Assembly: GCA_016792625.1 (NCBI GenBank) | Contig: JAEUKK010000027.1 | Location: 78,424 to 142,423 of the forward strand | Source: Deltaproteobacteria bacterium | GTDB lineage: Bacteria; Myxococcota_A; UBA796; UBA2385 | DNA length: 64,000 nt | Direction of reading: 5' to 3' | Shown: one piece after another, positions 17,986 through 59,860 of the stretch | Layout of the letters: every line of letters starts with the position of its first letter | Position numbering within the stretch: position 1 is the stretch's first letter | The notes under the pieces: model-generated | Database searches by the model: none | What the model was told of the DNA's origin: nothing | The model's input: only the letters and a program-made list of their open reading frames with translations | Position numbers and translations under genes: made by a program

Positions 17986-18050
17986 AAGGCGTTTGACGCA
18001 CAGGCTGTGCTCCGCGTGGATACGCAGCCAGCGACGCCCCGGAGCCCCCG

Positions 18051-25161: not shown

Positions 25162-25184
25162 CGAACACCCGTGGACAGAGAGGG

Positions 25185-30788: not shown

Positions 30789-30922
30789 GGCACGCTCAAA
30801 GGCACGGGGATGGGCGCCGGCTGGCGCCGTGGGGCGCGCGGCTGCGGGGGGTCAAGCCCCCGCACGCGGGTGCGGACGCCACGGTCCGGGGTGGTCCGGC
30901 CGGGTGGGCGCCCGCGCAGACC

Positions 30923-37726: not shown

Positions 37727-39676
37727 TCAGCGGCTGGGGATGACCGCGATGTCGGCGTCGTCGGGATCACCGCAGTCCGCGGTGTAGCCGTCGCCGTCGG
37801 TGTCGGTGCCCAGCGTCGGGCAGAAGCTCAGCACCCGACCCTCGAGGTCGTAGGGGTCGGTCGAGCGGAAGACGTCGCCGCTGGAGCCGCTGTAGATGTA
37901 GCCGAAGCGCTCCCACATCAGGCGCTGGCGGCCGGTGCCGAGGCCCAGCGCGCCGGTGTAGGGCTCGGCGGCCGACATGTCGGTCTCGCGGTCGGCGGTC
38001 GTACCCGCGCCGCAGCTCCAGCCGACCACCGCGTCGGTCGCGTAGGTGCCGCCGATGTCGTAGACCTCGTCGTGGCGGATCTCGAAGCTGCCGTCGATGA
38101 ACAGCAGGGCCGAGAAGGTGTTGGGGCTGTACAGGTCGGAGCTGTTCCAGAAGCTGGTGTTCACCCAGTAGATGCCCACCGCGTCGTCAAATTCGACCGC
38201 GTAGACCGCGCCCTGCTCTTCGGGGATCTCGGTCAGCTCGGCGGCCATGTCATCCCACAGCACGGCGATCATGGGGTTCTTCGCCGAGGTGCCCGTGGCC
38301 GAGCTCAACATGTCGTTCGACGAGGGGCTGAGGTCGTAGCTGCCCAGGCCGAAGTGCAGGCGGCCGTTGGTGTCGACCCGCACGCCGGTCTGGCTCGTGC
38401 CGCAGAAGGGGAAGGTGAGGGTGGGGAAGCTCACCGTCGTGATGCCGTCGTCGGTGTCGGTGAAGGTGACCTCGAGCGCGTCGGTGTCGGCCGCGTCGAC
38501 GAGGCCGTCGCAGTCGTTGTCGAGCGTGTCGGTGTCGGTCGACAGCTCGAGCGCGTAGGGGCGGATGGCCGCGTCGGTGTCGTCGCAGTCATCGCCGCCG
38601 TAGGCGCTCGCCGCGAAACCATCGACGTCCGCGTCGTAGTCATCGCCGCCCGCGCAGTCCTGGTCGAAGCCGTCGTACCAGAGCTCAGCGGCGCCGGGGT
38701 AGGTGGCCGCGTCGCTGTCATTGCAGTCAGTGCCGCTGTACTCATCGCTGTCGACGCCGTCGAGGTCGGCGTCGAAGTCGCTGGTGGTCGAGCAGTCCTG
38801 GTCGACGCCGTCGTACCAGATCTCGGTGGCCGCGGTGTTGATCGCGCTGTCGGTGTCGTTGCAGTCGGTGCCGCCGTAGGCGCTCGCGTCGAAGCTGTCG
38901 AGGTCGGCGTCATAGTCGCTGCCGCCGCTGCAGTCGTTGTCGGCGCCGTCGTACCAGGTCTCGGTGTTGCCCGGGTAGGCCGCCTCGTTCGTGTCGTCGC
39001 AGTCGGTGTTGTCGTCGACGTGCTCGGTGGGCTGGCTGCAGGCCACCGCGGGGGTGGCGGGGTCGCCGTAGCCGTCGCCGTCGGCGTCCCAGTACCAGGT
39101 AAACGCGTCGACGCTGTCGCTGCCGTCGATCACCGTGTCGCAGTTGTCGTCGATGCCGTTGCAGGACTCGTCGGCGTCGGGCGCGATGGCCGAGTTGGCG
39201 TCATCACAGTCACCGGCTTCGGCGGCGAGGCCGGCGGCGGCGCCGCAGGTGGTCACCGGCAGCGACTCGTCGCCGAAGCCGTCGCTGTCGGCGTCGGTGT
39301 AGTAGGTGAGCGTGCCGGTGACGCTGTCGTCCTCCATGTCGATGAGGCCGTCGCAGTCGTTGTCGATGCCGTCGCAGGCCTCGGTCGCGCTGGGGTTGAC
39401 CGCGGGGTCGCTGTCATCGCAGTCCACGTCGGCGGTGGCGCCGTCTTCGTCGGCGTCGACCGGGCCGCCGTCGGTGCCATCGGCGCCGTCTGCGCCATCG
39501 GCGGTGCCGTCGTCTGCGGTGCCGTCATCAGCGGTGCCGTCGTCTGCGGTGCCGTCATCAGCGGTGCCGTCATCGGCGGCGCCGCCGCTGTCCTTGTCGC
39601 TGGTCGGTTCGCAGCCGGTCAGCAGGCCGCCCGCGAGGGCGAGGAGGAGGGAGGGGAACAGGCGCGACATGGTCAT
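37727..39676 (-). CDS. Lipoprotein with myxobacterial MopE-like 'putative metal-binding' Cys/Asp-rich repeats
   Basis: MTMSRLFPSLLLALAGGLLTGCEP lipobox. (GTADD)x5 low-complexity linker. At least 7 repeats of ...DADGDGYG ... DCDD ... NP ... E.C(D/N)G.D(N/Q)DC(D/S)G.D. The C-terminal 280 aa form a different, unknown domain. The ORF 37727..40060 is trimmed to the ATG at 39676. Confidence 0.7.
   Translation of the reverse strand: MTMSRLFPSLLLALAGGLLTGCEPTSDKDSGGAADDGTADDGTADDGTADDGTADDGTADGADGADGTDGGPVDADEDGATADVDCDDSDPAVNPSATEACDGIDNDCDGLIDMEDDSVTGTLTYYTDADSDGFGDESLPVTTCGAAAGLAAEAGDCDDANSAIAPDADESCNGIDDNCDTVIDGSDSVDAFTWYWDADGDGYGDPATPAVACSQPTEHVDDNTDCDDTNEAAYPGNTETWYDGADNDCSGGSDYDADLDSFDASAYGGTDCNDTDSAINTAATEIWYDGVDQDCSTTSDFDADLDGVDSDEYSGTDCNDSDAATYPGAAELWYDGFDQDCAGGDDYDADVDGFAASAYGGDDCDDTDAAIRPYALELSTDTDTLDNDCDGLVDAADTDALEVTFTDTDDGITTVSFPTLTFPFCGTSQTGVRVDTNGRLHFGLGSYDLSPSSNDMLSSATGTSAKNPMIAVLWDDMAAELTEIPEEQGAVYAVEFDDAVGIYWVNTSFWNSSDLYSPNTFSALLFIDGSFEIRHDEVYDIGGTYATDAVVGWSCGAGTTADRETDMSAAEPYTGALGLGTGRQRLMWERFGYIYSGSSGDVFRSTDPYDLEGRVLSFCPTLGTDTDGDGYTADCGDPDDADIAVIPSR
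39485..39590. repeat. Tandem 15-bp repeat (gcggtgccgtc[a/g]tc[a/t]) encoding (A/T)DDGT x5-6 within the MopE-like lipoprotein gene
   Basis: Direct head-to-tail near-identical 15-nt units visible at 39490-39590. Confidence 0.6.
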
Positions 39677-39792
39677 GGAGTGCTCCGGCGGCAGTGGGGA
39701 CGCGCGGGCAACCCGCGCGAGCAGCGGCGCGATACCACGCCGATGCGCCACTGTCCTGACACCAGCCTCACATCCGGCGCCCCGGAGCCTCC

Positions 39793-41430
39793 ATGCGCGC
39801 TTCGCTCCTCCTCCTGTTGGGCCTCGGTCTCGGCTGTGCCTCGTCGACCGAGAAGGTGGAGGAGGGAGCGGACGGCGCAGGTGAAGCGGACGGCGCCACC
39901 GGTGGGGCCGACGCCGCCGATGGTGCGGCCGACGCTGGGGGTGAGGGGCAGGAAGAGGGTGCGGATGGCGCGGATGGCGCCGACGGCGCCGCCGTCGACG
40001 CGGACGGGGATGGGAGCCCCGCGCCCGCCGACTGCGACGACGACGATCCCCTGCGGTCACCCGAGCTGGTCGAGCTGCCCGACGACGGCATCGACAATGA
40101 CTGCAACCCTGCCACCTGCCCCGGGCTCGGCTTCGCTGACCGCCCCGTCGACTACGCCCTGCCTGAGGGCTACCCCGCGCTCTCGTTCATCGTGCAGCAG
40201 CGCGAGGCCCGCTGCGCCGACGGGCTGCGCGCCCACAGCCTGCGCGAGCTCGACGGCGACGGCTGGCTCGATCTGGTGGTCACCGCCAGCCCCTGCGGTG
40301 GCGAAGAGCCCGGCCTCGCCGCTTGGTGGCTGCACCGGGGTGGTCCCGATGGCTTCTCCGCCGTTGCCAGCCCCTGGGCTTTGCCCTCCGCCTTCCCCGC
40401 CGGCTCCCTCTCCGCGCCGACCGGGGTCGCTGACTGTGGGCTGGGCCGTCCGCGCTATGGTCTGCTCGATGTGAACGGCGACGGCGCCGACGATCTGGTG
40501 GCCTTCTCCGCCGCTTGCGGTGAAGGGGAGCCCGGCCTCTCCTCATGGCTGGTCGCTCCGAGCGACGGCGCGGCTGGCTTCGGCGCCGCCGCCGACTGGG
40601 CCCTGCCGGCCGACGCGCCGGCGGGTGGGCTGCGCGCGCCCTCCGCTCCCGCCGATTGTGGCGCAGGGCAGCCCGCCTACGCCTTGGTCGCGGCCCGCCG
40701 GGGCGCGGCGCCGGGGCTGATGTTCACCGGCGCGGCCTGCGGCGACGGCGCGCCCGGCGAGGGGAGCTGGACCTTCTCTGCCCCGGGCGCCGCGGGCTTC
40801 GCGGCGGGCGTGGAGTGGGCCTTGCCGGCGGGCCGTTGGGATGGGCTCACCGGCCTGCCCGACTGCGGCGCGGGCCGGCGCGGCTGGGCCACGCTCGACC
40901 TGACCGGCGATGGGCTGCTCGATCTGGTCGAGACCGAGGGCTGCGATGGCGGTGGGTGGACGCTCTTTGTCGGCGATGGTGCAGGCTTCTCCACCGAGGG
41001 GCGGCCGCTGAGCCTCCCCTCGGCCCTCGCTGGCCTGCTCCCCAGCCCCGGCGTGGCCGCCGACTGCGCGCTGGGGCGCCCGGCGGTCAGCCTGCTCAGC
41101 CTGCGCCCCGGCGCTGCGCCGGCCCTGGTGATCACCGCATCAGCCTGCGGAGACGACGCGCTGGGCACGAGCCTGTGGCGCGCCCACCTGCCGGTCGAGG
41201 GCGGCTGGGCGGAGGAGGCGGGGGAGCTGAACCTCCCGCCAGGCTTCTCGGCGGGCAGCTTCGCGGCGGTGGGCGGAGAGCGGGGCTGCGCCGCCGAGCG
41301 CCCCGGCTGGCTGCTGGCCGAGCTCACCGGGGATGGCCAGCTCGACGTCGTGATCACCGCGCTGCCCTGCCTCGAGGACGGCGTGGGCGCCGACCGCTGG
41401 CAGATCTACCCGGGGAGCTGCGCGCCCTAA
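39793..41430 (+). CDS. FG-GAP / VCBS-like repeat lipoprotein (integrin-alpha-like beta-propeller)
   Basis: Lipobox LLLLLGLGLGCASS. Acidic Gly/Ala/Asp linker. Repeated xDxxGDGxxDLV Ca-binding motifs (ELDGDGWLDLVV, LDVNGDGADDLV, DLTGDGLLDLVE, ELTGDGQLDVVI). One MopE-like DCDDDDP ... DGIDNDC unit near the N-terminus. Confidence 0.65.
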   Translation: MRASLLLLLGLGLGCASSTEKVEEGADGAGEADGATGGADAADGAADAGGEGQEEGADGADGADGAAVDADGDGSPAPADCDDDDPLRSPELVELPDDGIDNDCNPATCPGLGFADRPVDYALPEGYPALSFIVQQREARCADGLRAHSLRELDGDGWLDLVVTASPCGGEEPGLAAWWLHRGGPDGFSAVASPWALPSAFPAGSLSAPTGVADCGLGRPRYGLLDVNGDGADDLVAFSAACGEGEPGLSSWLVAPSDGAAGFGAAADWALPADAPAGGLRAPSAPADCGAGQPAYALVAARRGAAPGLMFTGAACGDGAPGEGSWTFSAPGAAGFAAGVEWALPAGRWDGLTGLPDCGAGRRGWATLDLTGDGLLDLVETEGCDGGGWTLFVGDGAGFSTEGRPLSLPSALAGLLPSPGVAADCALGRPAVSLLSLRPGAAPALVITASACGDDALGTSLWRAHLPVEGGWAEEAGELNLPPGFSAGSFAAVGGERGCAAERPGWLLAELTGDGQLDVVITALPCLEDGVGADRWQIYPGSCAP

Positions 41431-46347: not shown

Positions 46348-47325
46348 TTACGTAGCCGTCGTGATCTTCGGCGCAGTTTGGGTGGAGGAGGCCGGGCCCG
46401 GGTGGAGCGCGGTCATGCCCAGCCAGACCACCGAGAGCCAGACCGCGTCGGCGAGGAGCAGGTGGACCAGCTGCGCCCAGACCGGGGCCAGCAGCGCGAG
46501 GTTGATGACACCCACAGTGATCTGGGTGAGGAAGAGGCCAAGCACCACCAGCGCCGACCGCCGCGCCGCGGCCCCGCGGCCAAAACCCACCGCCACCGCG
46601 ACCACCGCGGTGAAGCCGCCGACCAGCACCGCGCCGAGCGGATGGAAGACCCGCAGGCGGATGAGCAGGTGGGCGGTGGGGGAGAGGTCCTGCGCGATCC
46701 CCTCGGCGAGGCTGCCCGCGGGGAAGAGCGTGTCGCCGAGCGCGGTCACCGCCCCGCTGGCCCCGAGCACCAGCAAGAGGCCGAGGTTGACGGCCAGCAG
46801 CACCAAGGGAGCGCCTTGGCCCCGCAGCTGCACCGCCGGCGCGCCCGTGGCCCAGCGGGCGGCGATGAGGTTGCTGGCCAGCAGCAAGAAGGTGTTGCCC
46901 AGGTGCACGGCCATGATGACCGCCCGGCCGATGCTGTCGTCTTGGCCGACCTTCTTGAGCAGCACGATCGCCGCGCCCACCCCCGCCTCGGCCAGCATGA
47001 AGCCCATGGTCACCAGGGCTGCCCGCCGCACCCGGTGCCCGGCCGGCCAGGCGCGCCAGCCCAAGATCAGCGTGGCGAGGGTCATCAAGAGCACCACCCC
47101 GCTGGTGAGCCGGTGGGTGAGCTCGATGAGGGTCTCGACCGCCGGCGCGCGCGGCACCAGCTCGCCGTTGCACATCGGCCAGTGATCACCGCAGCCGGCG
47201 CCCGAGCCCGAGGCCCGCACAAAGGCCCCCCAGGCGATCACGAAGAAGTTGACCAGCAGGGTGGCCCAGGCGAGGCGGGCGGCGCGCTGCTGCGCAGGCG
47301 AAGCGGCGGGGTCGGCGAAGAGCAT
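46348..47325 (-). CDS. ctaA: Heme A synthase (CtaA/COX15 family)
   Basis: GAFVRASGSGAGCGDHWPMCNG plus multiple TM helices and conserved His residues. The ORF 46348..48156 is trimmed to the ATG at 47325. Confidence 0.8.
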   Translation of the reverse strand: MLFADPAASPAQQRAARLAWATLLVNFFVIAWGAFVRASGSGAGCGDHWPMCNGELVPRAPAVETLIELTHRLTSGVVLLMTLATLILGWRAWPAGHRVRRAALVTMGFMLAEAGVGAAIVLLKKVGQDDSIGRAVIMAVHLGNTFLLLASNLIAARWATGAPAVQLRGQGAPLVLLAVNLGLLLVLGASGAVTALGDTLFPAGSLAEGIAQDLSPTAHLLIRLRVFHPLGAVLVGGFTAVVAVAVGFGRGAAARRSALVVLGLFLTQITVGVINLALLAPVWAQLVHLLLADAVWLSVVWLGMTALHPGPASSTQTAPKITTAT

Positions 47326-47584
47326 CGGGCGCCTCGACAGGGCGAGGCCCGGGCAGCGGAGGGCGCCGCGGCGCGGGCAAGGTGCCGCTCTAATCGGGGC
47401 GGAGGGGCGCGCCCCGGGCGGTGGTGGGCGGCGCGCCCAGATCAGCGCGCGGCAGGCAGGACACCGCGCTGCAATCGACGCAGCTTGCGCCGGTCCGGTA
47501 CAAGAGCTGCGGGAGGGCCTGCGTGGGCCGTACCGGGGCCGCCGTCGCCCCTGCACCCGCGCCCCCTTCCTCCTGGAGGAGCCT

Positions 47585-50119
47585 GTGTCCGAGAAGCGCA
47601 ACGCCGCCCCGTCTCCCTCCCTCGCCCCGGCCCGTGGGGGCGCGCCCGCCCGCGGCGGCGCGGGCTCCGCAGGCCCGACCGCTGCGCCGGTGATCGGCGC
47701 CGCGATGAACCAAGAGGTGGTCGAGGCCATCGGTTTTGCGCAGTCCGGCGACACCGTCGTGCTCCAAGAGATGATGGCGCGCGGCGTCGATGTCACCGCG
47801 GTGATGGGCGATATGTGGGCCCGCAGCAGCAGCCGCGAGAGCGAGAGCACCGTCGCCCAGGCCCACGCCGAGCCGACCGGCGCGATGTGGGCCGACGTCA
47901 CCCACCGCACCGAAGAGGCCGAAGAGCTGCGCGCAGGTATGGGCCGGCCCCCCGAGGTCGCCCCGGTGGCCGAGGTCGCGGTGCCCGAGGCCAAGCTGCC
48001 GCCGGCGGTCGAGATCCACGACATGGGCCCCGCCCAGCGCTGGGACAGCGTGGGCTCCGACATGGCCACCAGCGAAGAGGCGGGCGACTCCGACCGCATC
48101 GCCGAGATTCTGGTGACCGACTTGGGCACCGACCTCTCGGGCATGCCCATCCACATGGATCGGCCGGCTTGGCGGGTGGCCTCGACCTACAACGCCGAGG
48201 CGGTGATCGTCGACGAAGAGGTCTACCTCCACCGCAACGTCGAGGAGCGCATCTCTGGCGAGCTGGCTGGGCCCGAGCTGGGCGCCTCGCTCGACACCGA
48301 CGGCAGCCGCCTGGGCGGCCTCGTCTCCCCCTCCTGGCGCCCGCCCTTCCTGCGCCACTCGGGCTCGGCCGTGGTCATCACCGATGGCGGCTACACCATC
48401 GAGATGAAGAACGAAGAGGTCATCGTCTTTGACGAGACCGGCGAGCAGATCACCCACATCTGGGGCGACCCGCACGTCAACGAGGGCAAGGGCGGCGACG
48501 ACTGGCACTTCGGCGAAGACAGCACCTTCATCCTCCCCGATGGCACCAAGATCTGCCTCGACACCGAGCCCAACTCGGCCGGTGAGTGGTACGTCGTCGG
48601 CGTCGATGTTTTGGGCGGCAGCCAGCGCTACCACTACGGCGTGGGCGGCAAGCAGGGCATGACCCAAGACGCCGAAGAGTTCGACCTCGCCCACGAAGAC
48701 GCGAGCAAAGACAAGTCGGCCGGCGTCTTCGCCCTGGCCGCGGGCAACCAGTGGGCCAAGATGGGCGCCGACGGCGAGTTCTACGACGTCAATGATGAGA
48801 GCTGGGGCGGCTACCTGGCCACCCGCGACGTCACCGGCGGCGCCAAGGCCGAGGTGAACGACCGCCAAAAGGCCGTCGCTGGCGACAAAGACCTCAAGGC
48901 CCAAGCCAAGCAGAAAAAGGGCAAGGGCGCGGCTGACGACAGCTTGATCTCGAGCCACCGCGAGAGCACCGAGACCAAGGCCTGGGTCGCGGCCCAGCAG
49001 GTCGAGGTCGACGCCCAGACCGGCAAGGTGATCGACCCGCTGCGCTACATGCCCCAGGCCGTCGAGATCGACGACCGCGGCGAGCCCAACTACATCCCGG
49101 GCATCGAGCGCGAGATGGCGGTCAGCCAGCCCCACGGCGACTCCGCGCGCGCGGGCCAGCTGCTCAAGCCGAAGCTGGGCATCGACTTCTCCCGCTACGA
49201 CGTGCACATCGACGACGAGGCGCAGAAGGTCGCCTGGGCCTACAACGCCAACGCGGTCCTCTTTGGCCAGAGCCTGTATGTGCACGCCGATCTGGTCAAC
49301 CAGATCGAGGTCGAGCTCGCCGCGCCGGCGGTCGAGACCCGGGGCGCGGGCGCCGAAGAGACCACCCGCGACGGCTTCCTCATCGCGCCGAAGTGGCGGC
49401 CGCCCTTCGCCCGCCTCGCTGGCTCCGAGATCGTGATCACGCCCTCGGGCTACACCATCGAGATGAAGGGCGCTGACGTCATCGTCTTCGACGAGACCGG
49501 CGAGCAGATCACCCACATCTGGGGCGACCCCCACGTCAACGAGGGCAAGGGCGGCGACAACTGGCACTTCGGCCAGGACAGCACCTTCATCCTCCCCGAC
49601 GGCAGCAAGCTCTGCCTCGACACCGAGCAGAACGCGGGCGGCGAGTGGTACGTGGTCGGCGTCGACGTGCTCTGCGGCCGCGAGCGCTACCACTACGGGG
49701 TGGGCGACAAGGGCGGCATGACCGAGGACGCCCTCGACTGGGACAAGGACCACAAAGACGCCGCCGCCGACGCCTCGGCCGGTGTCTTCGCGCTCCAAGA
49801 GAACGGCCAGTGGGCCATTATGGCCAAGGACGGCAAGTTCTACGACGTGCGCGACGAGTCCTGGCAGTCCTACCTCAAGGACAAGGACGTCGACTTCGAC
49901 CCCAACAGCATGGCCAAGGGCCTGACCGAGAAGCAGATCGCGGTGGCTGACGACCGCGACCTCGCCCGCCAAGAGGCGGCCCAAGACAATGGCTGGGGTC
50001 GCTCCCGCCCGGTGACCAGCGGCGGCAAGCGCTACCACCGCTTTGAGAGCATGAAGATCGAGGCCGAGCTGATGATGCTCCTGCGCGACGACAAGATCGT
50101 CCAGCGCCGCATCGGCTGA
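47585..50119 (+). CDS. Hypothetical cytoplasmic protein built from a tandem duplication of a ~350-aa module containing GDPH motifs
   Basis: RBS ggagga upstream of the GTG at 47585. No signal peptide. Two modules share near-identical segments: GYTIEMK..VIVFDETGEQITHIWGDPHVNEGKGGD(D/N)WHFG(E/Q)DSTFILPDG.K.CLDTE ... GEWYVVGVDVL.G..RYHYGVG.K.GMT.DA. The ORF 47249..50119 is trimmed. Confidence 0.6.
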   Translation: MSEKRNAAPSPSLAPARGGAPARGGAGSAGPTAAPVIGAAMNQEVVEAIGFAQSGDTVVLQEMMARGVDVTAVMGDMWARSSSRESESTVAQAHAEPTGAMWADVTHRTEEAEELRAGMGRPPEVAPVAEVAVPEAKLPPAVEIHDMGPAQRWDSVGSDMATSEEAGDSDRIAEILVTDLGTDLSGMPIHMDRPAWRVASTYNAEAVIVDEEVYLHRNVEERISGELAGPELGASLDTDGSRLGGLVSPSWRPPFLRHSGSAVVITDGGYTIEMKNEEVIVFDETGEQITHIWGDPHVNEGKGGDDWHFGEDSTFILPDGTKICLDTEPNSAGEWYVVGVDVLGGSQRYHYGVGGKQGMTQDAEEFDLAHEDASKDKSAGVFALAAGNQWAKMGADGEFYDVNDESWGGYLATRDVTGGAKAEVNDRQKAVAGDKDLKAQAKQKKGKGAADDSLISSHRESTETKAWVAAQQVEVDAQTGKVIDPLRYMPQAVEIDDRGEPNYIPGIEREMAVSQPHGDSARAGQLLKPKLGIDFSRYDVHIDDEAQKVAWAYNANAVLFGQSLYVHADLVNQIEVELAAPAVETRGAGAEETTRDGFLIAPKWRPPFARLAGSEIVITPSGYTIEMKGADVIVFDETGEQITHIWGDPHVNEGKGGDNWHFGQDSTFILPDGSKLCLDTEQNAGGEWYVVGVDVLCGRERYHYGVGDKGGMTEDALDWDKDHKDAAADASAGVFALQENGQWAIMAKDGKFYDVRDESWQSYLKDKDVDFDPNSMAKGLTEKQIAVADDRDLARQEAAQDNGWGRSRPVTSGGKRYHRFESMKIEAELMMLLRDDKIVQRRIG
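48389..48840. repeat. Intragenic direct repeat, copy 1 (about 85-90% nt identity to copy 2)
   Basis: ggctacaccatcgagatgaag ... shared with 49448 onward. Long runs of identical nucleotides. Confidence 0.7.
49448..49900. repeat. Intragenic direct repeat, copy 2
   Basis: See copy 1. The copies lie 1059 bp apart in the same frame. Confidence 0.7.
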
Positions 50120-53830: not shown

Positions 53831-54739
53831 TCAAGAGATGAGGAGCTCGGCCACCCGGCCGCGGCTCGAGGCCCGGCTGTTGATCGCCCGGCCGCACAGC
53901 ACGGTGCGGTGGTGGAAGCTGCCCTGGTAGAGCTCCCGCACGGTCGCCGTGTCGGAATTGCTGAGCAGCACGTGCACCCCGCGGTCTTTGAGCGCGGCGG
54001 CCACGTCGCGCAGCCGCGCTTGGTCGGCCATGCTGAAGCCGTCGGCGGTGTAGCTGGTGAAGTCGGCCGTGTGGCTGACCGGCACATAGGGCGGGTCGAA
54101 GTACACGAAGTCGCCGGGCAGGGCGCGGTCGAGCACGCTGTCGAAGGGCGCGTGCTCGATGTGGGCGCCGGCCAGGGCGCGGCTGGCCACGCGCAGCCCC
54201 TCGGCGTCGCAGATCTGCGGGTCGGCGTAGCGGCCGAGCGGCACGTTGAAGCCGCCGCTGCGGTTGACCCGGTAGAGGCCGTTGTAGGCCGTCTTGTTCA
54301 AGTAGATGAACCAGGCGGCCACGTCGGTGTCGTCGTCGAACTTGTCCACGTCGATGGCCCGCACGGCGTAGAACTGCTCCTCGTCGTGGGCCTCGGCGTA
54401 GTCTTTGAGGCGCAAGATCAGCCCCTCGACGTCATTTTGCACCGCGCGCCAAGTGCGCACGAGGCGAATGTTCACGTCCGACAGGCTGGCCCAGGCGCCC
54501 GGGCGCACAAAACGCCCCGCCAGCGCGAAGAAGAGCGCGCCGCCGCCCACAAATGGCTCGTGGTAGCGCCGAAAGCCCGCCGGTGCGCCCTCGAGCAGCT
54601 CGTCGATCAGGCGGCGCTTGCCGCCGGCCCACTTCACGAAGGGGCGGGCCTGGGCGGGGGGCTGCGCGGGGAGCAGGCCAGGGTGGGCGAGCTGCTGCGC
54701 GCCGGGCCGGGGCAGGGCACGGAGGGAGGGTGCGGGCAT
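53831..54739 (-). CDS. DNA adenine methyltransferase (Dam / D12 class N6-adenine MTase)
   Basis: N-terminal FVKWAGGKRRL, the FxGxG SAM motif EPFVGGGALFF, and catalytic DPPY (VYFDPPYVPVS). Confidence 0.8.
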   Translation of the reverse strand: MPAPSLRALPRPGAQQLAHPGLLPAQPPAQARPFVKWAGGKRRLIDELLEGAPAGFRRYHEPFVGGGALFFALAGRFVRPGAWASLSDVNIRLVRTWRAVQNDVEGLILRLKDYAEAHDEEQFYAVRAIDVDKFDDDTDVAAWFIYLNKTAYNGLYRVNRSGGFNVPLGRYADPQICDAEGLRVASRALAGAHIEHAPFDSVLDRALPGDFVYFDPPYVPVSHTADFTSYTADGFSMADQARLRDVAAALKDRGVHVLLSNSDTATVRELYQGSFHHRTVLCGRAINSRASSRGRVAELLIS

Positions 54740-55179
54740 GGCGGTCCAAGGCCGTGTGGCCGTCGGCGGAGAGCAGGGGGAGGGGTTGACATGCCAACCC
54801 TACTGCTCGACGTGACCTCAGACCAGCCCCGAGACCGCTGATGACGACGACATCTTCGTCGACCCGTGGAACGGCAGCCCCCCGTGCGGGGAACGCCAGG
54901 GCTGGACCGACCCTCGCAGGGGCGGCCCCGGCGCCCGCGCCTGTTCCCCGGGGGGCAGCGGCGCGTGGAACCAACCGGCGATCGGCCCGGCCTCTTGGGC
55001 GCAGCGCCGCGGGGCGGATCGGGGCCCGTGGCGCGCGCGGCGCCGATCCGGCGCAGGACGCCCTCAGAAACCGGTCGCTGGGCCGATGCTCAGCGGCGCG
55101 GCTCGGCTACGCTCGGGCCGTCGCACGGGCGGGCTCCCCCCGCTGCCCTCCGCTGTGTCCCCAAAGAGGGAGGTTGTCG

Positions 55180-58029
55180 ATGTCCCGCCGCTCCGTGCTC
55201 CCCCTGGCCGCGCTGCCCCTCCTCCTCCCCCTGGCCCTCGGCGCGGCCCCCGCCCGCGCCCAAGAGCTGCCCGACGACTTCGTCCTCGAGACGGTGGCCG
55301 GCGGCTTCTTCCTCCCCATCACCTTTGACCTCGCCTGGGATGGCACACCTTTTGTCGCCACCAAAGACGGCAAGGTCTGGTCGGTCGATGAAGACGGCGA
55401 CAAGCGCGTGGTCCTCGACCTCAGCGCCGAGGTCAACGGCCAGGGTGACCGCGGCATGGTCGGCCTCGCCCTGCACCCCGACTTCGAGGTCAACGGCTGG
55501 TTCTACGTCGTCTACACCGTCGATCCCATCGAGGGTGAGCCGGATGAGGCCGCCACCGCCGCCTCGTGGGGCCGCCTCGAGCGGTGGACCTTGACCCGCC
55601 GCCCCGGCGCCGCGCCGGCCGACTGGGCCCTCGACCCGGCCAGCCGCTTCGTCATCATCGGCGAGACCCCCGAGGCCGGCTTCCCCAGCTGCTCGGTCAC
55701 CCACCACGTCGGCTCGGTGCGTTTTGGCCCCGACGGCGCGCTCTACGTCTCGGCCGGCGAGGGCGCACACTTCGACTACTACGCCGATCTGGGCCAAGAC
55801 CTCACCGCCGACGATGAGCAGTGCTCGGCTTGGTTCACCGACGATGACGTGGGCGCCCTGCGCGCCCAGGCCCTCTGGTCGCTCGGCGGCAAGGTGCTGC
55901 GCCTCGACCCCGAGACCGGCCTCGGCCTGCCCGACAACCCGCACTACACGGGCAACCCGAGCGACATCGAGTCGATGGTCTGGGTCAACGGCCTGCGCAA
56001 CCCCTGGCGCTTCTCGATCGACCCGGTCGACGGCTGGGTGTGGATCGGCGACGTCGGCGAAGACCGCTGGGAAGAGCTCAACTTCGCCCCCGGCGGCGAG
56101 AACTTCGGCTGGCCCTGCTACGAGGGCATCTCTGACAACCCGCAGTACCTCGAGGCCGACGCACCGTTGGCCGGCTGCGAGACCATCGAGACCAGCCTCA
56201 ACCCCGGCGATCTGACCTCGCCGCTGATGACCTGGAACCACTACGTCGACACCCTGCTCAGCCCGAGCGGGGTCAGCGACACGCTGTTCACCGGGGCGAC
56301 GGCCCTGGCCGGCCCGACCTACGTCGGCGGCCTCTACCCCGAAGAATACGTCGGCCGCGTCTTTTTCGGCGACTTCACCGCCGGCTGGCTGCGCACCGCC
56401 GAGGTGAACATCACCGGCAGCGGCCACTTCGCCGAGGCCGAGCTGCTCAGCGTCGAGACCTTCGGCACCGATCTCATCGGCTTGGTCGACATGGGCGCCC
56501 ACCCGGTCACCGGCGACCTCTACCTGCTCAACATTTACAACGGCGGGCTCTTCCGGCTGAAGTACGACGGCGGCGGCGACCGCGCGCCGATCCCGGTGCT
56601 CGAGCTCAGCGCCAACGCCGGCTCGGCCCCCTTCGCCGTCTCAGCCGACGCCAGCGCCAGCCTCGACCCCGAGGGTGCGCCGCTCAGCTTCACCTGGCTG
56701 TGGGGCGATGGTGCCACCTCGACCGGCCCGACGGCCACCCACACCTACACCGCGGGCGGCACCTACCTGCTGACCCTGCGGGTGAGCGACGCGACGGGCA
56801 ACGTCAGCTCGACCGCCCAGCGCATCCTCGTCGACCGCAGCGCGCCGACCGCGACGATCACCGCGCCGGTCGACGGCCTGCGCTTCACCCTGCCCAACAC
56901 GTTTACGCTCAGCGGGGTGGGCACCGACGCCGAAGACGCGCCCGCCGCCCTGCAGTATCGCTGGTCGATCGACCTCTACCACAACACCCACTACCACCCC
57001 TCCTACCGGGTGCTGACCGGGGCCAACGCCAGCCTGCCCGTGGCGGCGATCGACGAAAACGGCTTCATGGAGGTGAACCTCACCGTCACCGACAGCGACG
57101 GCCTGACCGCCACCGACAGCGTGCGCATCTACCCGAGCAACCGCCCGCCCGCGGCCAGCGTGCCGGCGGGCCAGGTCGGCCGGGCCGGCGCGCCCATGCT
57201 CATCCCGCTGACCATCGTCGATCCCGAGGGTGACGACATCACCATCGAGGCCCTCGACCTGCCCGCTGGGGTGAGCCTCGACGTCGCGGGGCGTCGCCTG
57301 CTGTGGACGCCGACGACCGCCCAGGTCGGCACGCACACCTTCCGCCTGCTGGTCGGTGACCGCAACCCTGCGCCGATGACCCGCGAGCTCATCTTTGACG
57401 TCGAGGTGCTGCCCAGCAGCAGCCAGGTGCTCGCCCTGACCATGACCGAGGACTGGGGCGGCGGCTACTGCGGCGACATCGAGTGGACCAACGACACCGG
57501 CGCGCCCGTGCGCGACTGGGCCATCCTGATGGGCCTGACCGCCGAGGTCTTCGCGTCTTGGTCGGGCGTGTTCAGCGAGGTGGCCGGCGGCTACCTCATT
57601 GAGCCGGTCTGGTACAACGAAGAGCTGCCGCCTGGCGCCACCCTCCTGGTCGGTTTCTGTGCGGCGGGCCCGGCCCCGAGCAGCGTCGAGCTCATCCTGC
57701 CCGACACCGAGACCGGCGAGGGCGCCGATGTGTTGGTCAGCTACACCGAGTGGGGCCGCTGGGGCGCGGCCAGCTGCGGCGACGTGTCCATCCGCAACAA
57801 CGAGCCGCTGCCGATCATCGGCTGGACGGTCAGCTTCGACCTGCCGATCACCCACGATCTCAGCAGCTTCTGGTTGGCCAACATCACCGAGCCGCTGCCC
57901 GGCCAGTGGCAGGCCAGCGACGAGGGCTGGAACGCCTGGCTCACCGAAGCGGGCGGCGAGCCGCAGGTCTTCGGCATCTGCATCGCCGGCGCCTCGGCCC
58001 CGACCAACCTGAGCTGGGGGCCGATCTAA
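55180..58029 (+). CDS. Secreted GSDH/PQQ-dependent sugar-dehydrogenase-like beta-propeller enzyme with one PKD domain, Ig-like domain(s) and two C-terminal CBM2-like carbohydrate-binding modules
   Basis: RBS agagggagg, then the ATG at 55180. Signal peptide MSRRSVLPLAALPLLLPLALGAAPARA. GSDH-family motifs (LETVAGGFFLPITFDLAWDGTPFVATKDGKVW ... MVGLALHPDF ... GWFYVVYT). PKD (FTWLWGDGATSTGPTATHTYTAGGTYLLTLRVSDATGN). Two CBM2-like units, each with a Cys pair (GGYCGDIEWTN ... GFCAAG; ASCGDVSIRNN ... GICIAG). The ORF 54841 start is rejected. Confidence 0.75.
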   Translation: MSRRSVLPLAALPLLLPLALGAAPARAQELPDDFVLETVAGGFFLPITFDLAWDGTPFVATKDGKVWSVDEDGDKRVVLDLSAEVNGQGDRGMVGLALHPDFEVNGWFYVVYTVDPIEGEPDEAATAASWGRLERWTLTRRPGAAPADWALDPASRFVIIGETPEAGFPSCSVTHHVGSVRFGPDGALYVSAGEGAHFDYYADLGQDLTADDEQCSAWFTDDDVGALRAQALWSLGGKVLRLDPETGLGLPDNPHYTGNPSDIESMVWVNGLRNPWRFSIDPVDGWVWIGDVGEDRWEELNFAPGGENFGWPCYEGISDNPQYLEADAPLAGCETIETSLNPGDLTSPLMTWNHYVDTLLSPSGVSDTLFTGATALAGPTYVGGLYPEEYVGRVFFGDFTAGWLRTAEVNITGSGHFAEAELLSVETFGTDLIGLVDMGAHPVTGDLYLLNIYNGGLFRLKYDGGGDRAPIPVLELSANAGSAPFAVSADASASLDPEGAPLSFTWLWGDGATSTGPTATHTYTAGGTYLLTLRVSDATGNVSSTAQRILVDRSAPTATITAPVDGLRFTLPNTFTLSGVGTDAEDAPAALQYRWSIDLYHNTHYHPSYRVLTGANASLPVAAIDENGFMEVNLTVTDSDGLTATDSVRIYPSNRPPAASVPAGQVGRAGAPMLIPLTIVDPEGDDITIEALDLPAGVSLDVAGRRLLWTPTTAQVGTHTFRLLVGDRNPAPMTRELIFDVEVLPSSSQVLALTMTEDWGGGYCGDIEWTNDTGAPVRDWAILMGLTAEVFASWSGVFSEVAGGYLIEPVWYNEELPPGATLLVGFCAAGPAPSSVELILPDTETGEGADVLVSYTEWGRWGAASCGDVSIRNNEPLPIIGWTVSFDLPITHDLSSFWLANITEPLPGQWQASDEGWNAWLTEAGGEPQVFGICIAGASAPTNLSWGPI

Positions 58030-58180
58030 GGTCGGGCGCCCGGGCGGGCCCTGCGGGGGTCGCGGGGGCCCACCGCCGCGGCGCAGGGCGCCGCGGCGCC
58101 CCGCTCCGCCCCGGTCCGCTGTGCGGCCCGGGGCCCGCTGCGCGGCCCCTGCGGTCCCTGGCGCGGCCCATGGCCCTCTT

Positions 58181-59860
58181 CTACTTGATGCGGAAGCCCC
58201 GCAGCTCGTTGTTGAAGACCCATGCCACCACCTCGCCGATCTCGAAGCCGGCGGCCGAGTAGGTGTGGGTGCTGGCCGCGGCCGAGCCGGCCTCGCGCAG
58301 GTCGGCGCGGGTCTGCAGCATGGCCCGGAAGCGCCCGATCCAGGTCTGGATGTTGCTCGGCCGCAGGTCGATCCAGCCCTTCTTGGCCCACTTGTCGAGC
58401 GCGTCTGGGTCGCCCAAGGGCACGCTGGCGCTGTGGCCGACCAGCTCGGGCACGTTGATCCGGGGCCCGCGCAGCACGGTCTGGCCGTCGGGCAGCAGCA
58501 CGGGGATGCCGATGCTCGGCGCGGTCTTCGCCACGCCCGACTTCTCCAAAATACCCTCCAGGCGCTTGCTCACCGCGGCTGGGTCGGCGCCGGCCTCGAT
58601 CGCCTTGGCCATCGTGCCGTAGGCCTGCTTGAACAGCTGGGCCTCGAAGAGCAGCTTGCTCAGCTCGGGCGGCCCGAGGCGGCCGAGCGCGATGCTCGGC
58701 ACGCCGGTCTCGAGCTCGACCGCCTCGAGGTCGTGCATGGCGGCGCTGCGCAGCAGGCCGGCCTTGTACGAGGGGTTGAGCACGCTGGCGTCGAGGCTCG
58801 ACACGATGTCCTGGCCGGTGTTCGCGCCGCGGATCTCGTGCACGACCGTGCGGGCGATCTCCTCAGGGGTGATGAACTCCATCTGGCCCAGCGCGGTGAT
58901 CGCCGCGAACTCTCCGCGGGTGAACACGCCGTTCTCGCCGGTGTCGACCAGCGGCACCTCGAGGCTGCCCACCTCTTTGTAGCCCTCGGCGCTCTGGCGC
59001 AGCTCCAGCGCCTTGTGCTCGCCGAGTTTTACCGCGACAGGGGCGTACAGCACGCTGTTCTCGTGCTTGTCGCGGGCACGGGCGACCTTGACCCCGCGGT
59101 AGCCGATCATGGCGGCGGGCTTGACCTCTTTGACGATCGGCGCGTCGGGCGTGCGGGCGAGCAAGAACAGCAGGCCGGTGTGGCCAAAAGCCGCCTCGTT
59201 CTTGGCCAAGAGCTTGTGGCTCGGGCGGTCTTCGCTGTGGGTGTAGGGGATGTTCAGCCCCATGCCGCCCGTGCCCGTCGTGCCCACCTTCAAGTAGACC
59301 TGGGTCTGGTACTCGGTGGTCGCGCGGTGCACGAAGCGCACGTGGCGCACGAGCTGGGGCACCGACTGGCTGAGCAAGAAGACCTCGAGGTCGGTCACGC
59401 CCTCGGGCGCGTAGCCGCCCTCGGCGCCGATCCACTCGCGCACCTTGGCGCTGCCGTCGAAGACGTCCTGGTAGGACAGGCCGGTGGCCGTGTTGACGCA
59501 GTCGACGATGACCTCGGGGCGGTGCTGGCGGATGAGCTGCACGAGGTGGTTGTCGCGGTAGGCCGCCTCAAAGTCGTCGTAGAGGGCCGCGAGCAGCTCT
59601 TTGCGCACGGCGCGGTCGGCGAGCAGCTCTTTGCGCTTGCGGTCGGCGTGGCGGGCCGGCAGGAAGAGGTCACCCCAGGCGGGCACAAAAGCGACCCGGT
59701 CGCCAAACTCGCGCTCGAGCTTGAGCGCGGCCTCTTCGGCCTCGGCCCGCAGCAGCGAGGCCACCACGATGCGCCGGGGCTGCAGGCGCTGCACGATGTG
59801 CCGGCAGACCTGCAGGCCGACCAGGCCCGCGCCGCCGAGGATGAGAAAGTCGTGGTACAT
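58181..59860 (-). CDS. Hypothetical NAD(P)-binding Rossmann-fold protein (559 aa)
   Basis: MYHDFLILGGAGLVGLQVCRHIV (GxGxxG) at the trimmed N-terminus (ATG at 59860). The upstream 160 aa of the ORF 58181..60349 are Arg-rich junk. The rest has no confident family assignment. Confidence 0.5.
   Translation of the reverse strand: MYHDFLILGGAGLVGLQVCRHIVQRLQPRRIVVASLLRAEAEEAALKLEREFGDRVAFVPAWGDLFLPARHADRKRKELLADRAVRKELLAALYDDFEAAYRDNHLVQLIRQHRPEVIVDCVNTATGLSYQDVFDGSAKVREWIGAEGGYAPEGVTDLEVFLLSQSVPQLVRHVRFVHRATTEYQTQVYLKVGTTGTGGMGLNIPYTHSEDRPSHKLLAKNEAAFGHTGLLFLLARTPDAPIVKEVKPAAMIGYRGVKVARARDKHENSVLYAPVAVKLGEHKALELRQSAEGYKEVGSLEVPLVDTGENGVFTRGEFAAITALGQMEFITPEEIARTVVHEIRGANTGQDIVSSLDASVLNPSYKAGLLRSAAMHDLEAVELETGVPSIALGRLGPPELSKLLFEAQLFKQAYGTMAKAIEAGADPAAVSKRLEGILEKSGVAKTAPSIGIPVLLPDGQTVLRGPRINVPELVGHSASVPLGDPDALDKWAKKGWIDLRPSNIQTWIGRFRAMLQTRADLREAGSAAASTHTYSAAGFEIGEVVAWVFNNELRGFRIK

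Follow-up and report, generated by a model that had tools for sequence, protein, structure and literature searches.

The described proteins most similar to the one analysed here belong to the Asd/sGDH set, which includes E. coli Asd/YliI (2G8S), the P. aerophilum (3A9G/3A9H), S. coelicolor (3DAS) and T. thermophilus (2ISM) proteins, and A. calcoaceticus sGDH (1C9U), all of them six-bladed, single-domain periplasmic PQQ/Ca2+ quinoproteins. Another point of reference is the fungal AA12 family, represented by CcPDH, with the domain order AA8-AA12-CBM1, and by TrAA12. CcPDH is a cellulose-binding enzyme that drives LPMOs (PMC5960967, PMC4332668), and AA12 is the precedent for cellulose binding together with LPMO activation (PMC4332668, PMC5960967, PMC6881789); the PQQ carboxylates in AA12 are held by a different set of residues, namely, a His and main-chain amides (PMC6881789). 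For bacteria, AA12-like PQQ propellers have been reported from 77 phyla (preprint 10.64898/2026.07.10.737718), and the full PQQ signature was found in only 483 of the 2,290 propellers with six blades that came from weathered granite (Voutsinos et al., preprint). Teredinibacter turnerae secretes CBM-bearing GSDH/cytochrome c proteins on cellulose, TERTU_2567 and TERTU_3803, proposed AA12 analogues that are uncharacterized (PMC12055684). The same fold is also present in HHIP, a eukaryotic non-catalytic ligand trap.

Here we analyse a gene from an uncultured MAG labelled Deltaproteobacteria, located in a window (the whole stretch of DNA that was analysed) of 64,000 nucleotides. The gene (55180-58029, forward strand, within an enclosing ORF at 54841..58029, forward strand) encodes a protein of 949 aa that consists of seven parts: signal peptide, GSDH-type propeller, PKD, PKD-like, and He_PIG/Big_9 domains, and two CBM2 modules. 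The protein is closest to the bacterial Asd/sGDH enzymes and HHIP, and is not a sequence-level member of AA12. The features of the locus are as follows:

54841..55179, forward strand: in-frame upstream extension (113 codons, 339 nt), non-coding
55166..55173, forward strand: Shine-Dalgarno-like site GAGGGAGG, 6 nt before the ATG at 55180, read directly
55180..55260, forward strand: Sec-type signal peptide, residues 1-27 (MSRRSVLPLAALPLLLPLALGAAPARA followed by QE), from the sequence, with cleavage placed by the AXA rule
55267..56583, forward strand: six-bladed GSDH-superfamily beta-propeller, residues ~30-468 (Pfam GSDH, AF2 model, Foldseek)
56584..56829, forward strand: canonical PKD domain, residues 469-550 (PKD_4 and PKD profiles)
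56830..57138, forward strand: PKD-like Ig domain, residues 551-653 (weak K319L-like_PKD and Big_7 matches)
57139..57399, forward strand: He_PIG/Big_9 cadherin-like Ig domain, residues 654-740 (He_PIG and Big_9 profiles)
57400..57714, forward strand: CBM2 module 1, residues 741-845 (CBM_2, 42.0 bits alone)
57715..58029, forward strand: CBM2 module 2, residues 846-949 and the stop codon (CBM_2, 34.6 bits alone)

Gene boundaries and export

The start codon at 55180 is confirmed by convergent evidence from the sequence, that is, the Shine-Dalgarno-like site (GAGGGAG in L001, an orthologue that is 94% identical), the signal peptide, the GC composition of the upstream region, the frame-breaking indels in L001 and the database records. 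The GC1/2/3 values of the upstream extension are 0.73/0.83/0.75, compared to GC3 of 0.90-0.96 within the gene, and the extension had no match in a Pfam scan. In L001, the upstream indels are not multiples of three, and the 949 codons are all collinear. NCBI record MBL8614622.1, named "PQQ-dependent sugar dehydrogenase", corresponds exactly to the 949-aa product, as does an independent Logan gene call; a 1062-aa version that would include the extension is absent from the sequence records. The earlier note, which considered the N-terminal 113-aa extension probably untranslated and pointed to a good RBS and signal peptide at the internal start, was right on both counts, as it was on export. The extension coincides with the intergenic region common to this gene and a divergent Dam methylase gene, and short blocks within it are kept at the orthologous locus. 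A scan of positions 54700-58300 yielded no sigma-70 promoters and a single terminator-like site (58189-58203), against 0.9 expected by chance.

The signal peptide is of the Sec type, with A-R-A followed by Q at residues 25-28, where the AXA rule predicts cleavage, and it contains no lipobox Cys. Tat export, suggested by 'SRR' in the signal peptide, is unlikely because the RR is not kept in L001, which has 'SRC' at this site. The eight Cys of the protein make up four within-domain pairs, which fits an oxidizing extracytoplasmic location, and the protein may be secreted past the periplasm.

Propeller and active site

The catalytic domain proposed in the earlier note is indeed a GSDH-family six-bladed propeller. 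Residues 47-385 match profile positions 5-278 of 332 of Pfam GSDH (PF07995), with a score of 97.8 bits where 25 is the cut-off, the AF2 model has a pLDDT of 90 and a pTM of 0.90, and Foldseek aligns the propeller with 3a9g, 1c9u, 3das and 2ism with E values between 1e-21 and 1e-18 (best matches 3a9g, E 1.3e-21, target TM 0.83, and 1c9u, E 1.9e-21). A HMMER search of the PDB with the family profile retrieved 2ism, 3a9g and 1c9u with E values between 1e-37 and 1e-30. HHIP comes close behind the enzymes (HMMER E 1e-24; Foldseek E 3e-19), but its sequence aligns only in the N-terminal half (query residues 33-195); six-bladed lactonases and hydrolases (7riz, PON1, DFPase) are weaker Foldseek matches (E 1e-7 to 1e-6). 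The likeness to the Asd/sGDH enzymes extends to the catalytic His, the Arg-Asn pair and the 'GWP' motif, along with, as judged by alignment, the position of the backbone Ca loop, whereas the sequence identity is only ~20%, the propeller exceeds theirs by ~100 residues and contains a long helical insertion (residues 193-237) in its third blade, two extra disulfides are predicted (C171-C215 and C313-C333), and five extra modules follow the propeller. At 73.3 bits, the match to NCBIfam TIGR03606 stays below the threshold of 434.55, with only profile positions 49-292 of 454 aligned, and both the Pfam GSDH and the TIGR03606 alignments end short of blades 5-6.

The description of this propeller as AA12-like, also put forward earlier, does not hold at the sequence level: the family profile recovered no AA12 structures from the PDB even at E<=10, and in Foldseek, TrAA12 and CcPDH (E 1.5e-11 to 5.5e-10, 10-13% identity) rank below Asd, sGDH and HHIP. 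The protein shares with fungal AA12 a secreted six-bladed PQQ-type propeller combined with a cellulose-binding module, as well as equivalents of the catalytic H363 and of R430 and N431, but lacks the AA8 cytochrome and carries two bacterial CBM2 modules in place of CBM1. Furthermore, R621 of CcPDH (sGDH R406; PMC6881789) corresponds to Gly434, and the AA12-specific PQQ ligands (R273, H560, the W563/N564 loop and R621) are absent or unmappable. The T. turnerae proteins are likewise bacterial and secreted, and combine GSDH with CBMs; by description, however, they contain cytochrome c with CBM5/CBM10, whereas the present protein has no haem domain, and has PKD, tri-His PKD, He_PIG and CBM2 modules.

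Across 46 relatives with 34-48% identity to the query, H175 (55702-55704), which corresponds to the catalytic general-base His of sGDH (H144), and R273-N274 (55996-56001), which correspond to the R228/N229 pair contacting the PQQ quinone, are invariant (46/46). Further residues invariant in the clade are D291-V292-G293, E298, W311-P312-C313, E315, C333, H354 and D398. In contrast, the PQQ-carboxylate ligands of sGDH/Asd, K377, R406 and R408, are replaced by T400, G434 and V436, and Lys or Arg occupies these columns in 1, 7 and 0 of the 46 relatives, respectively. These three positions were mapped via E. coli Asd, where the 'LK' and 'RxRD' motifs are the equivalents of the clamps (hmmalign left the C-terminal blades of full-length sGDH unaligned); the alignments to 2g8s, 7cdy and 3a9g are concordant. 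The invariant acidic D398 lies two residues ahead of the K377-equivalent position, and the clade-conserved H354, R91 and R/K405 could substitute for the carboxylate clamps. By sequence position only, the sGDH loop (E-Q-G247-P248) whose G247 and P248 coordinate the active-site Ca2+ via backbone carbonyls aligns with the invariant D291-V292-G293-(W/E)294, with an invariant Val in the place of His/Gln246; this motif matches none of those of the bacterial AA12-like clusters (NERD..D, HGRD..E, NQVD..G, NGRD..D). Of the catalytic His and the PQQ-binding residues, whose absence would refute the reading according to the earlier note, H175, R273 and N274 are kept and the clamps are lost. Because the three residues that normally hold PQQ are missing, the chemistry of the propeller is unproven; the protein may be a polysaccharide-targeted oxidoreductase.

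Ig-like modules and the CBM2 pair

Three Ig-like modules, rather than the one PKD listed earlier, connect the propeller to the CBM2 pair. The PKD domain already recognized is canonical (PKD_4, 71.8 bits, residues 472-546; PKD, 45.8 bits), and collagenase PKD structures match it. The next domain is PKD-like both by profile (K319L-like PKD, 30.3 bits, residues 570-650, above the gathering score) and by model, with a His cluster replacing the WDFGDG loop. The motif, W595-x-I-x-L-Y-H601-N-T-H604-Y-H606-P (His codons within 56980-56997), resides on a beta-hairpin (modelled with a pLDDT of 93, the His turn lying between strands 43-51 and 56-64), and H601, H604 and H606 are present in 58 of 60 relatives and show no variation in two further alignments. 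In place of a fourth His, kept in most relatives, the query has Ile624, a loss characteristic of its CBM2-tailed sub-clade. Most clade members carry a PKD-like module with an invariant three- or four-His cluster. In the PDB, only generic PKD/Ig folds match this module, and no solved or described counterpart was found. The third domain (He_PIG, 40.9 bits, residues 658-730; Big_9, 38.7 bits) is a spacer or stalk module. The PKD_4 and He_PIG scores likewise exceed the respective gathering cut-offs. All modules are under purifying selection, with dN/dS values of 0.05-0.25, the lowest (0.05) being that of He_PIG.

The two C-terminal CBM2 modules, which the earlier note identified and proposed to check against the profile threshold, each exceed the CBM_2 (PF00553) cut-off of 24 bits when scanned separately, with three planar-face Trp kept. 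The surface Trp of module 1 are in the motifs EDW, ASW and PVWYN, aligned to the CBM2 of 6bt9 (a chitinase) and 6f7e, and the RW, SFW and EGWN motifs of module 2 align with W17, W54 and W72 of Cex (1exg), and also with 3ndy and 2rtt. The modules are ~22% identical to each other (23/104). In both, the terminal Cys of the disulfide joining the N- and C-termini of CBM2 are absent; instead, there are internal Cys pairs in matching positions (C764/C827 and C866/C934) that probably form disulfides. The 86 nearest relatives, obtained by an exhaustive HMMER search (a 5-mer-prefilter word search caught only an orthologue fragment, the modules being too divergent), are all CBM_2 proteins, in which the module is attached to GH18 (10), GH5 (7), GH9, GH12, GH8 and LPMO_10 (AA10), that is, to GH18 chitinases, GH5/9/12/8 cellulases and one AA10 LPMO. 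The pair is predicted to be of type A, with crystalline cellulose or chitin as the likely ligand.

Distribution and genomic context

The GSDH-PKD-tri-His PKD core defines a widespread, uncharacterized clade (32-45% identity over residues 1-650) that is represented in Planctomycetota, Bacteroidota, Myxococcota, Actinomycetota, Acidobacteriota, Binatia and other phyla, and shares the invariant residues, the missing PQQ clamps and the tri-His module of the query; no characterized member was found in the searched literature. Lectin or CBM tails are usual in this clade (PA14, GLEYA, F5/8-type-C, Laminin_G_3, DUF1349, CBM96, legume-lectin and NPCBM, along with dockerin and Por_Secre_tail), suggesting that the clade is generally aimed at glycans. 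CBM2 tails, in contrast, are rare, with one among 60 GTDB representatives (the 94% orthologue) and two more among 1.84 billion representative proteins. Because the architecture recurs in L001, P0122 (947 aa) and P0125 (977 aa), and all modules show low dN/dS, it is no accident. Some clade members, encoded on long contigs, consist of the propeller only (~450-520 aa; e.g., P0002, P0006, P0010 and P0016).

No conserved neighbourhood was detected: among the 149 flanking ORFs at 45 related loci, no Pfam family occurs more than three times, and the Pfam scan found no pqq genes, cytochromes or CAZymes. In the window, where the larger ORFs were scanned, no pqq, PqqU-like, cytochrome, LPMO or CAZyme genes adjoin the gene. 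Genomic context thus offers no functional clue, and the oxidative biomass- or prey-degradation toolkit envisaged earlier finds no backing in the window, with no oxidative or CAZyme set around the gene. A neighbouring regulator is 55-57% identical to proteins from Myxococcota and Binatia; a predatory or saprophytic myxobacterium is a plausible host.

Proposed function and alternatives

The explanation that we favour, with a probability of about 45%, is that the protein is an exported, CBM2-tethered propeller enzyme dehydrogenating sugars at crystalline polysaccharide. The N-terminal propeller would be the catalytic module, held on a stalk made of the three Ig-like modules, with the C-terminal CBM2 pair tethering the protein to a crystalline beta-1,4 polysaccharide, chitin or cellulose. 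A sugar hemiacetal or hydroxyl would be dehydrogenated on the polymer surface or close to it, for instance, at reducing ends or in released oligosaccharides, with His175 acting as the general base, and Arg273 and Asn274 polarizing the carbonyls of a bound quinone cofactor. PQQ, taken up outside the cytoplasm, would be the default cofactor candidate, and the acceptor of the electrons might be an LPMO, a soluble redox partner or a metal bound by the tri-His module. Counting against this explanation are the three missing PQQ clamps, the alignments that end before blades 5-6, and the near-equal match to HHIP; the lack of a fused cytochrome or cupredoxin domain, unlike CcPDH and the T. turnerae proteins; and the absence of pqq, LPMO or CAZyme neighbours, of a recurrent neighbour family and of a characterized clade member.

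Possible, although we are inclined to doubt it, is that the propeller no longer uses PQQ and acts on glycans either without any cofactor or with a metal, for example, as a lyase, lactonase or epimerase, or else is an oxidoreductase that employs another cofactor; in each case, it would reuse the His/Arg/Asn triad and the acidic residues of the top face (D291, E298, E315 and D398), with CBM2 delivering it to chitin or cellulose. The clade-wide loss of all three clamps along with the gain of the invariant Asp398, the divergence of the C-terminal blades from the GSDH and TIGR03606 models, the weaker matches to propeller lactonases and hydrolases, and the rarity of the full PQQ signature among the granite propellers are all compatible with this scenario. 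Nevertheless, the three invariant residues are exactly the sGDH contacts to the reactive ortho-quinone and the substrate, the position of the backbone Ca-binding loop is kept in the sequence alignment, AA12 manages with different carboxylate ligands, such that H354, R91 and R/K405 could substitute here, and the searches revealed no resemblance to known families of lyases or hydrolases. It is improbable that the protein is not an enzyme at all but a surface or secreted adhesin or a lectin-like binder, an HHIP analogue that would attach, for example, to plant debris or to the cell walls of prey or fungi. The rank of HHIP, a binding protein of the same fold, among the best matches, the numerous Ig-like, He_PIG and PKD modules typical of surface proteins, and the lack of a redox partner domain or a conserved operon speak for such a role; however, a pure binder would be unlikely to retain His, Arg and Asn at the catalytic positions across many phyla, and the propeller-only members resemble a free-standing enzyme.

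Bacterial membership in CAZy AA12, as a true pyranose dehydrogenase, appears highly improbable. The common superfamily fold, the presence of CBM modules as in CcPDH and the spread of AA12-like propellers among bacteria would fit, but the family profile retrieved no AA12 structure, TrAA12 and CcPDH trail Asd/sGDH in Foldseek by about ten orders of magnitude, the D-V-G-(W/E) motif is unlike the AA12-like cluster motifs, and Gly takes the place of CcPDH R621.

Implications

Bacterial electron donors to LPMOs, or sugar oxidizers acting on insoluble chitin or cellulose, are poorly known, with the fungal CcPDH as the main precedent, and the propeller described here, with two type-A CBM2 modules as its predicted tether, is a direct bacterial candidate for such a role. 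Members of the clade bear the annotation 'PQQ-dependent sugar dehydrogenase' throughout, although they lack the carboxylate-holding residues of every solved bacterial counterpart, so that the correctness of thousands of such annotations is at stake. The tri-His PKD-like module may be a new metal-binding accessory domain. More speculatively, and with odds well against it, the GSDH-PKD clade, having lost the PQQ carboxylate clamps, might not be made up of canonical PQQ/Ca2+ quinoproteins, and the tri- or tetra-His module of most members might be a metal site, holding copper for instance, that acts as a built-in electron acceptor or co-catalyst. If so, the His-cluster module would fill the role of the cytochrome domain of CcPDH, and the clade would represent an unrecognized class of extracellular glycan-targeted redox enzymes, of which the protein described here would be a version tethered to chitin or cellulose.

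Gene model and domain architecture

The gene is contained in a mechanical open reading frame of 1062 codons (54841..58029, plus strand) and starts at the ATG at 55180, as the earlier note proposed when it took the 113-aa extension to be probably untranslated. This start is borne out by a Shine-Dalgarno-like site, GAGGGAGG, 6 nt 5' of the ATG; by the Sec-type signal peptide at the N-terminus of the product, MSRRSVLPLAALPLLLPLALGAAPARA, followed directly by QE; and by codon-position composition, the 339 nt preceding the ATG having GC1/2/3 of 0.73/0.83/0.75 and each later 339-nt block of the gene a GC3 of 0.90–0.96, except for the final block, which passes the stop codon. Across the 949 codons, no gap interrupts the collinearity of the gene with its orthologue at locus L001 (94% amino-acid identity); upstream of the ATG, 1-nt and other frame-breaking indels separate the two loci. 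The exact 949-aa protein is present in a Logan gene call and in NCBI record MBL8614622.1 ([quoted passage not shown], carried on a 179,846-bp contig); the Logan gene call and NCBI look-up yielded no record of a 1062-aa version. By exact look-up, the protein's own 90% cluster has 10 members, MBL8614622.1 among them. A word-indexed homologue search with the propeller listed no match above 46% identity by BLASTP; with its 8000-candidate prefilter, this search can miss near-identical sequences, the protein's own 90% cluster being in the same collection.

Modules of the product (residues numbered from the Met at 55180; calls by Pfam and two AlphaFold models)
1-27: signal peptide, from sequence
about 30-468: GSDH six-bladed propeller; PF07995, 97.8 bits; model pLDDT 90, pTM 0.90
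469-550: PKD; PKD_4, 71.8 bits
551-653: PKD-like Ig domain; K319L-like_PKD, 30.3 bits; model pLDDT 93
654-740: He_PIG/Big_9 Ig domain; He_PIG, 40.9 bits
741-845: CBM2 module 1; CBM_2, 42.0 bits scanned alone (cut-off 24)
846-949: CBM2 module 2; CBM_2, 34.6 bits scanned alone (cut-off 24)

Three Ig-like modules thus stand where the earlier note named a PKD, and its two CBM2-like modules each exceed the family cut-off. The eight cysteines form four within-domain pairs (171/215, 313/333, 764/827, 866/934), which fits an extracytoplasmic protein, and dN/dS against L001 is 0.05–0.25, indicating purifying selection on all modules.

Propeller family and cofactor site

A propeller profile built from 46 relatives was run against solved structures.

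Profile matches of the propeller
Thermus thermophilus 2ISM: E 9e-37
Pyrobaculum aerophilum soluble aldose sugar dehydrogenase (Asd) 3A9G: E 4e-36
Acinetobacter calcoaceticus soluble glucose dehydrogenase (sGDH) 1C9U: E 2.5e-30
Escherichia coli Asd 2G8S: E 1e-29
hedgehog-interacting protein (HHIP, non-enzymatic): E 1e-24

The Foldseek ranking agrees with that of the profile. The fungal AA12 structures (TrAA12 6I1Q/6H7T and CcPDH 6JT5) were reached by Foldseek at E 1.5e-11 to 5.5e-10, with only 10–13% identity, and were not recovered by the sequence-profile search at E≤10. These profile and model comparisons assign the propeller to the GSDH superfamily and, within it, to the side of Asd, sGDH and HHIP; at the sequence level it is not an AA12 member, and the AA12-like label that the earlier note attached to the protein is not sustained.

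Residues of the sGDH cofactor site, their counterparts here and their conservation in the clade
H144, general base: H175; 46/46
R228 and N229, on quinone O5/O4: R273 and N274; 46/46
G247/P248 loop, backbone Ca2+ ligands: D291-V292-G293; invariant
K377, PQQ carboxylate ligand: T400; K+R 1/46
R406, PQQ carboxylate ligand: G434; K+R 7/46
R408, PQQ carboxylate ligand: V436; K+R 0/46, V 38/46

The sGDH reference sequence used for the mapping scores 108.1 bits, exactly the score of the PDB match, and all literature-numbered residues fall in the correct place. The Pfam GSDH and TIGR03606 alignments end short of the blades with the carboxylate ligands, and K377, R406 and R408 were mapped via three concordant alignments, to 2G8S (ALKDK, QRIRDV), 7CDY (ERIREV) and 3A9G (CLRGS, GRLRDV). 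Two residues N-terminal of the K377 position, D398 is invariant. The catalytic His and the PQQ-binding residues, whose absence the earlier note had named as a refuting result, give a divided answer: H175, R273 and N274 are invariant, but T400, G434 and V436 replace the carboxylate ligands, so that, judging from the alignments, the site is canonical in the half that contacts the quinone but not in the half that binds the carboxylates. H354 (H in 40/46, R in 6/46), R91 (37/46) and R/K405 (34/46) might, by analogy, substitute for the lost ligands; AA12 enzymes provide a case in which His and main-chain amides hold PQQ (PMC6881789).

A tri-His module in a widespread clade

Residues 551–653 (window 56830–57138) adopt a PKD-like fold according to both profile and model; in place of the WDFGDG loop of the usual PKD, this module carries W-x-[VIL]-x-L-H-H-(N-x or C-P-S-N-C)-H-x-H-P. 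The resulting H-x-x-H-x-H cluster, with His codons within window 56980–56997 and often HHCPSNCHxH in relatives, comprises H601, H604 and H606, which are present in 58/60 relatives, are invariant in two further alignments, and are placed by the model on a tight beta-hairpin (strands 43–51 and 56–64 of the 108-residue model). Of the 60 relatives, 54 have a fourth His, in the motif APDH; the position is Ile624 in the present protein and is replaced, with the motif IDENG, in L001 and in P0122 and P0125, two relatives from protein collections. The tri-His module follows the GSDH-PKD pair in 58 of the 60 relatives, across more than 10 phyla (loci L003–L080, proteins P0024–P0118), and structure and profile searches found the motif in no solved structure and no Pfam model. 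The His cluster looks like a candidate metal site.

Relatives are encoded at 492 loci when each GTDB species is represented by a single genome. The 80 best, which show 32–45% identity across residues 1 to roughly 650, are drawn from Planctomycetota, Bacteroidota/Rhodothermales, Myxococcota, Actinomycetota, Acidobacteriota, Binatia, Eisenbacteria, Chloroflexota and others. Among 60 complete members, 59 have a PKD domain, and the C-terminal tails vary: Por_Secre_tail (9), PA14, Laminin_G_3, DUF1349 and GLEYA (4 each), F5/8-type-C (3), CBM96 (1) and legume lectin (1), with CBM_2 only in the 94% orthologue. Dockerin and NPCBM tails also occur in metagenomic members, and propeller-only members of about 450–520 aa are found on long contigs. 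The GSDH-PKD-PKD-He_PIG-CBM2-CBM2 order recurs in P0122 (947 aa; CBM2 pair 61% identical) and P0125 (977 aa; 38%), and CBM2-tailed members, as judged from these architectures, form a small but stable sub-clade. The parts of such a protein are ordinary; the combination is rare. The gene neighbourhood is not shared: across 45 loci with 149 flanking ORFs in all, no Pfam family appeared more than 3 times.

The CBM2 pair

For module 2, alignments to the Cex CBM2a of C. fimi (1EXG), to ChiC of S. coelicolor (2RTT) and to EngD of C. cellulovorans (3NDY) put Trp where Cex has W17, W54 and W72; module 1 keeps the three aromatic positions in alignments to a chitinase CBM2 (6BT9) and to that of a Streptomyces cellulose-binding protein (6F7E). 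The two modules share only ~22% identity and, unlike CBM2 with a terminal disulfide, both have, unusually, a Cys pair inside the module. When 1.84 billion representative proteins were searched exhaustively with HMMER, 1,215 relatives of the two modules emerged; 86 of the best 150 were scanned, and all 86 are CBM_2 proteins, with GH18 (10), GH5 (7), GH9 (2), GH12 (2), GH8 (1) and LPMO_10 (1) as catalytic partners. The Trp positions, structure alignments and scanned CBM_2 relatives identify both modules, at the level of sequence, as bona fide type-A CBM2; the predicted ligand is likely crystalline chitin or cellulose, between which sequence does not discriminate.

Genomic context

The gene is unaccompanied, between a divergent upstream and a convergent downstream neighbour.

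Neighbours and other features of the window
15124-18150, minus: TonB-dependent receptor (Plug, CarboxypepD_reg, OMP beta-barrel)
17997-19412, plus: 471-aa protein, copper type II ascorbate-dependent monooxygenase C-terminal domain and weak cytochrome c (cbb3-type)
24328-25203, minus: OmpA-family gene, flanking the DUF3686 gene
25185-30851, minus: 1,888-aa protein, DUF3686 (“ATPase involved in DNA repair”, 647.8 bits), DUF7902 and AAA
30923-33085, minus: 720-aa gene without Pfam match, flanking the DUF3686 gene
37727-40186, minus: 819-aa MopE-repeat protein, six “putative metal-binding motif” copies (PF11617, 170.9 bits)
47186-50119, plus: 977-aa protein, DUF1521 (80.2 bits) and eCIS core domain (PF13699)
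53831-54739, minus, divergent: D12-class N6-adenine DNA methyltransferase (Dam methylase; PF02086, 181.7 bits)
58181-59800, minus: gene converging on the 3' end; strong coding statistics, no Pfam match at E≤0.001

The methylase could be an orphan or half of a restriction-modification pair; on a Logan contig, a 293-aa gene without Pfam match lies directly past it (L081, 523–1404). The extension of the converging ORF to 60349, with its Arg/Pro/Gly-rich N-terminus, is probably not translated. Comparison of the non-coding leader that separates the methylase gene from the dehydrogenase-like gene (54900–55170) with L001 (2290–2575) reveals short near-identical blocks, such as GATCCGGCGCAGGA, GCCGATGCTCAGC and GCCCTCCGCTGTGTCCC, separated by divergent, indel-rich stretches; the conserved blocks may be regulatory sites, and a scan covering the leader found no sigma-70-like promoter.

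Elsewhere, the window encodes kinases and sigma-54 regulators. The TonB-dependent receptor adjoins the 471-aa protein, in which the redox pairing is unusual; the OmpA-family, DUF3686 and 720-aa genes may form one operon; and the DUF1521/eCIS protein is reminiscent of toxin/effector cargo. A Pfam scan of the larger ORFs of the 64-kb window detected neither pqq genes nor any LPMO or glycoside hydrolase gene. An NCBI MAG protein matches the NtrC-like regulator at 100% identity and, among the matches listed, the named proteins from Myxococcota, Polyangiaceae, Nannocystaceae and Binatia do so at 53–57%; from this comparison, a myxobacterial affiliation of the uncultured MAG, labelled Deltaproteobacteria, is plausible.

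Possible function

Our leading, still tentative reading (probability about 0.45) is a secreted enzyme held on chitin or cellulose, with a GSDH-type propeller that oxidises sugars using a quinone cofactor. The two CBM2 modules would hold the enzyme on the crystalline polysaccharide, and in the propeller His175 would serve as the base for the oxidation of sugar hemiacetals or hydroxyls, the quinone being polarised by Arg273 and Asn274. There are precedents for such a design in CcPDH (AA8-AA12-CBM1; PMC4332668, PMC5960967) and in the GSDH-CBM proteins of Teredinibacter turnerae (PMC12055684).

In the main rival reading, the clade, with its carboxylate ligands lost and its triad retained, would have given up PQQ and would combine the same triad with acidic or metal ligands to carry out a different reaction; we consider this less likely than the leading reading, though it ranks ahead of the other alternatives. 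Lower in probability is a non-catalytic binder: HHIP is among the matched structures, but the triad is invariant in all 46 members. True membership in AA12 is highly improbable: bacterial AA12-like PQQ propellers have been described in carbohydrate loci in a recent preprint, but the clade matches none of their metal motifs (10.64898/2026.07.10.737718). The absent PQQ clamps and the tri-His module are the two points that most merit experiment.
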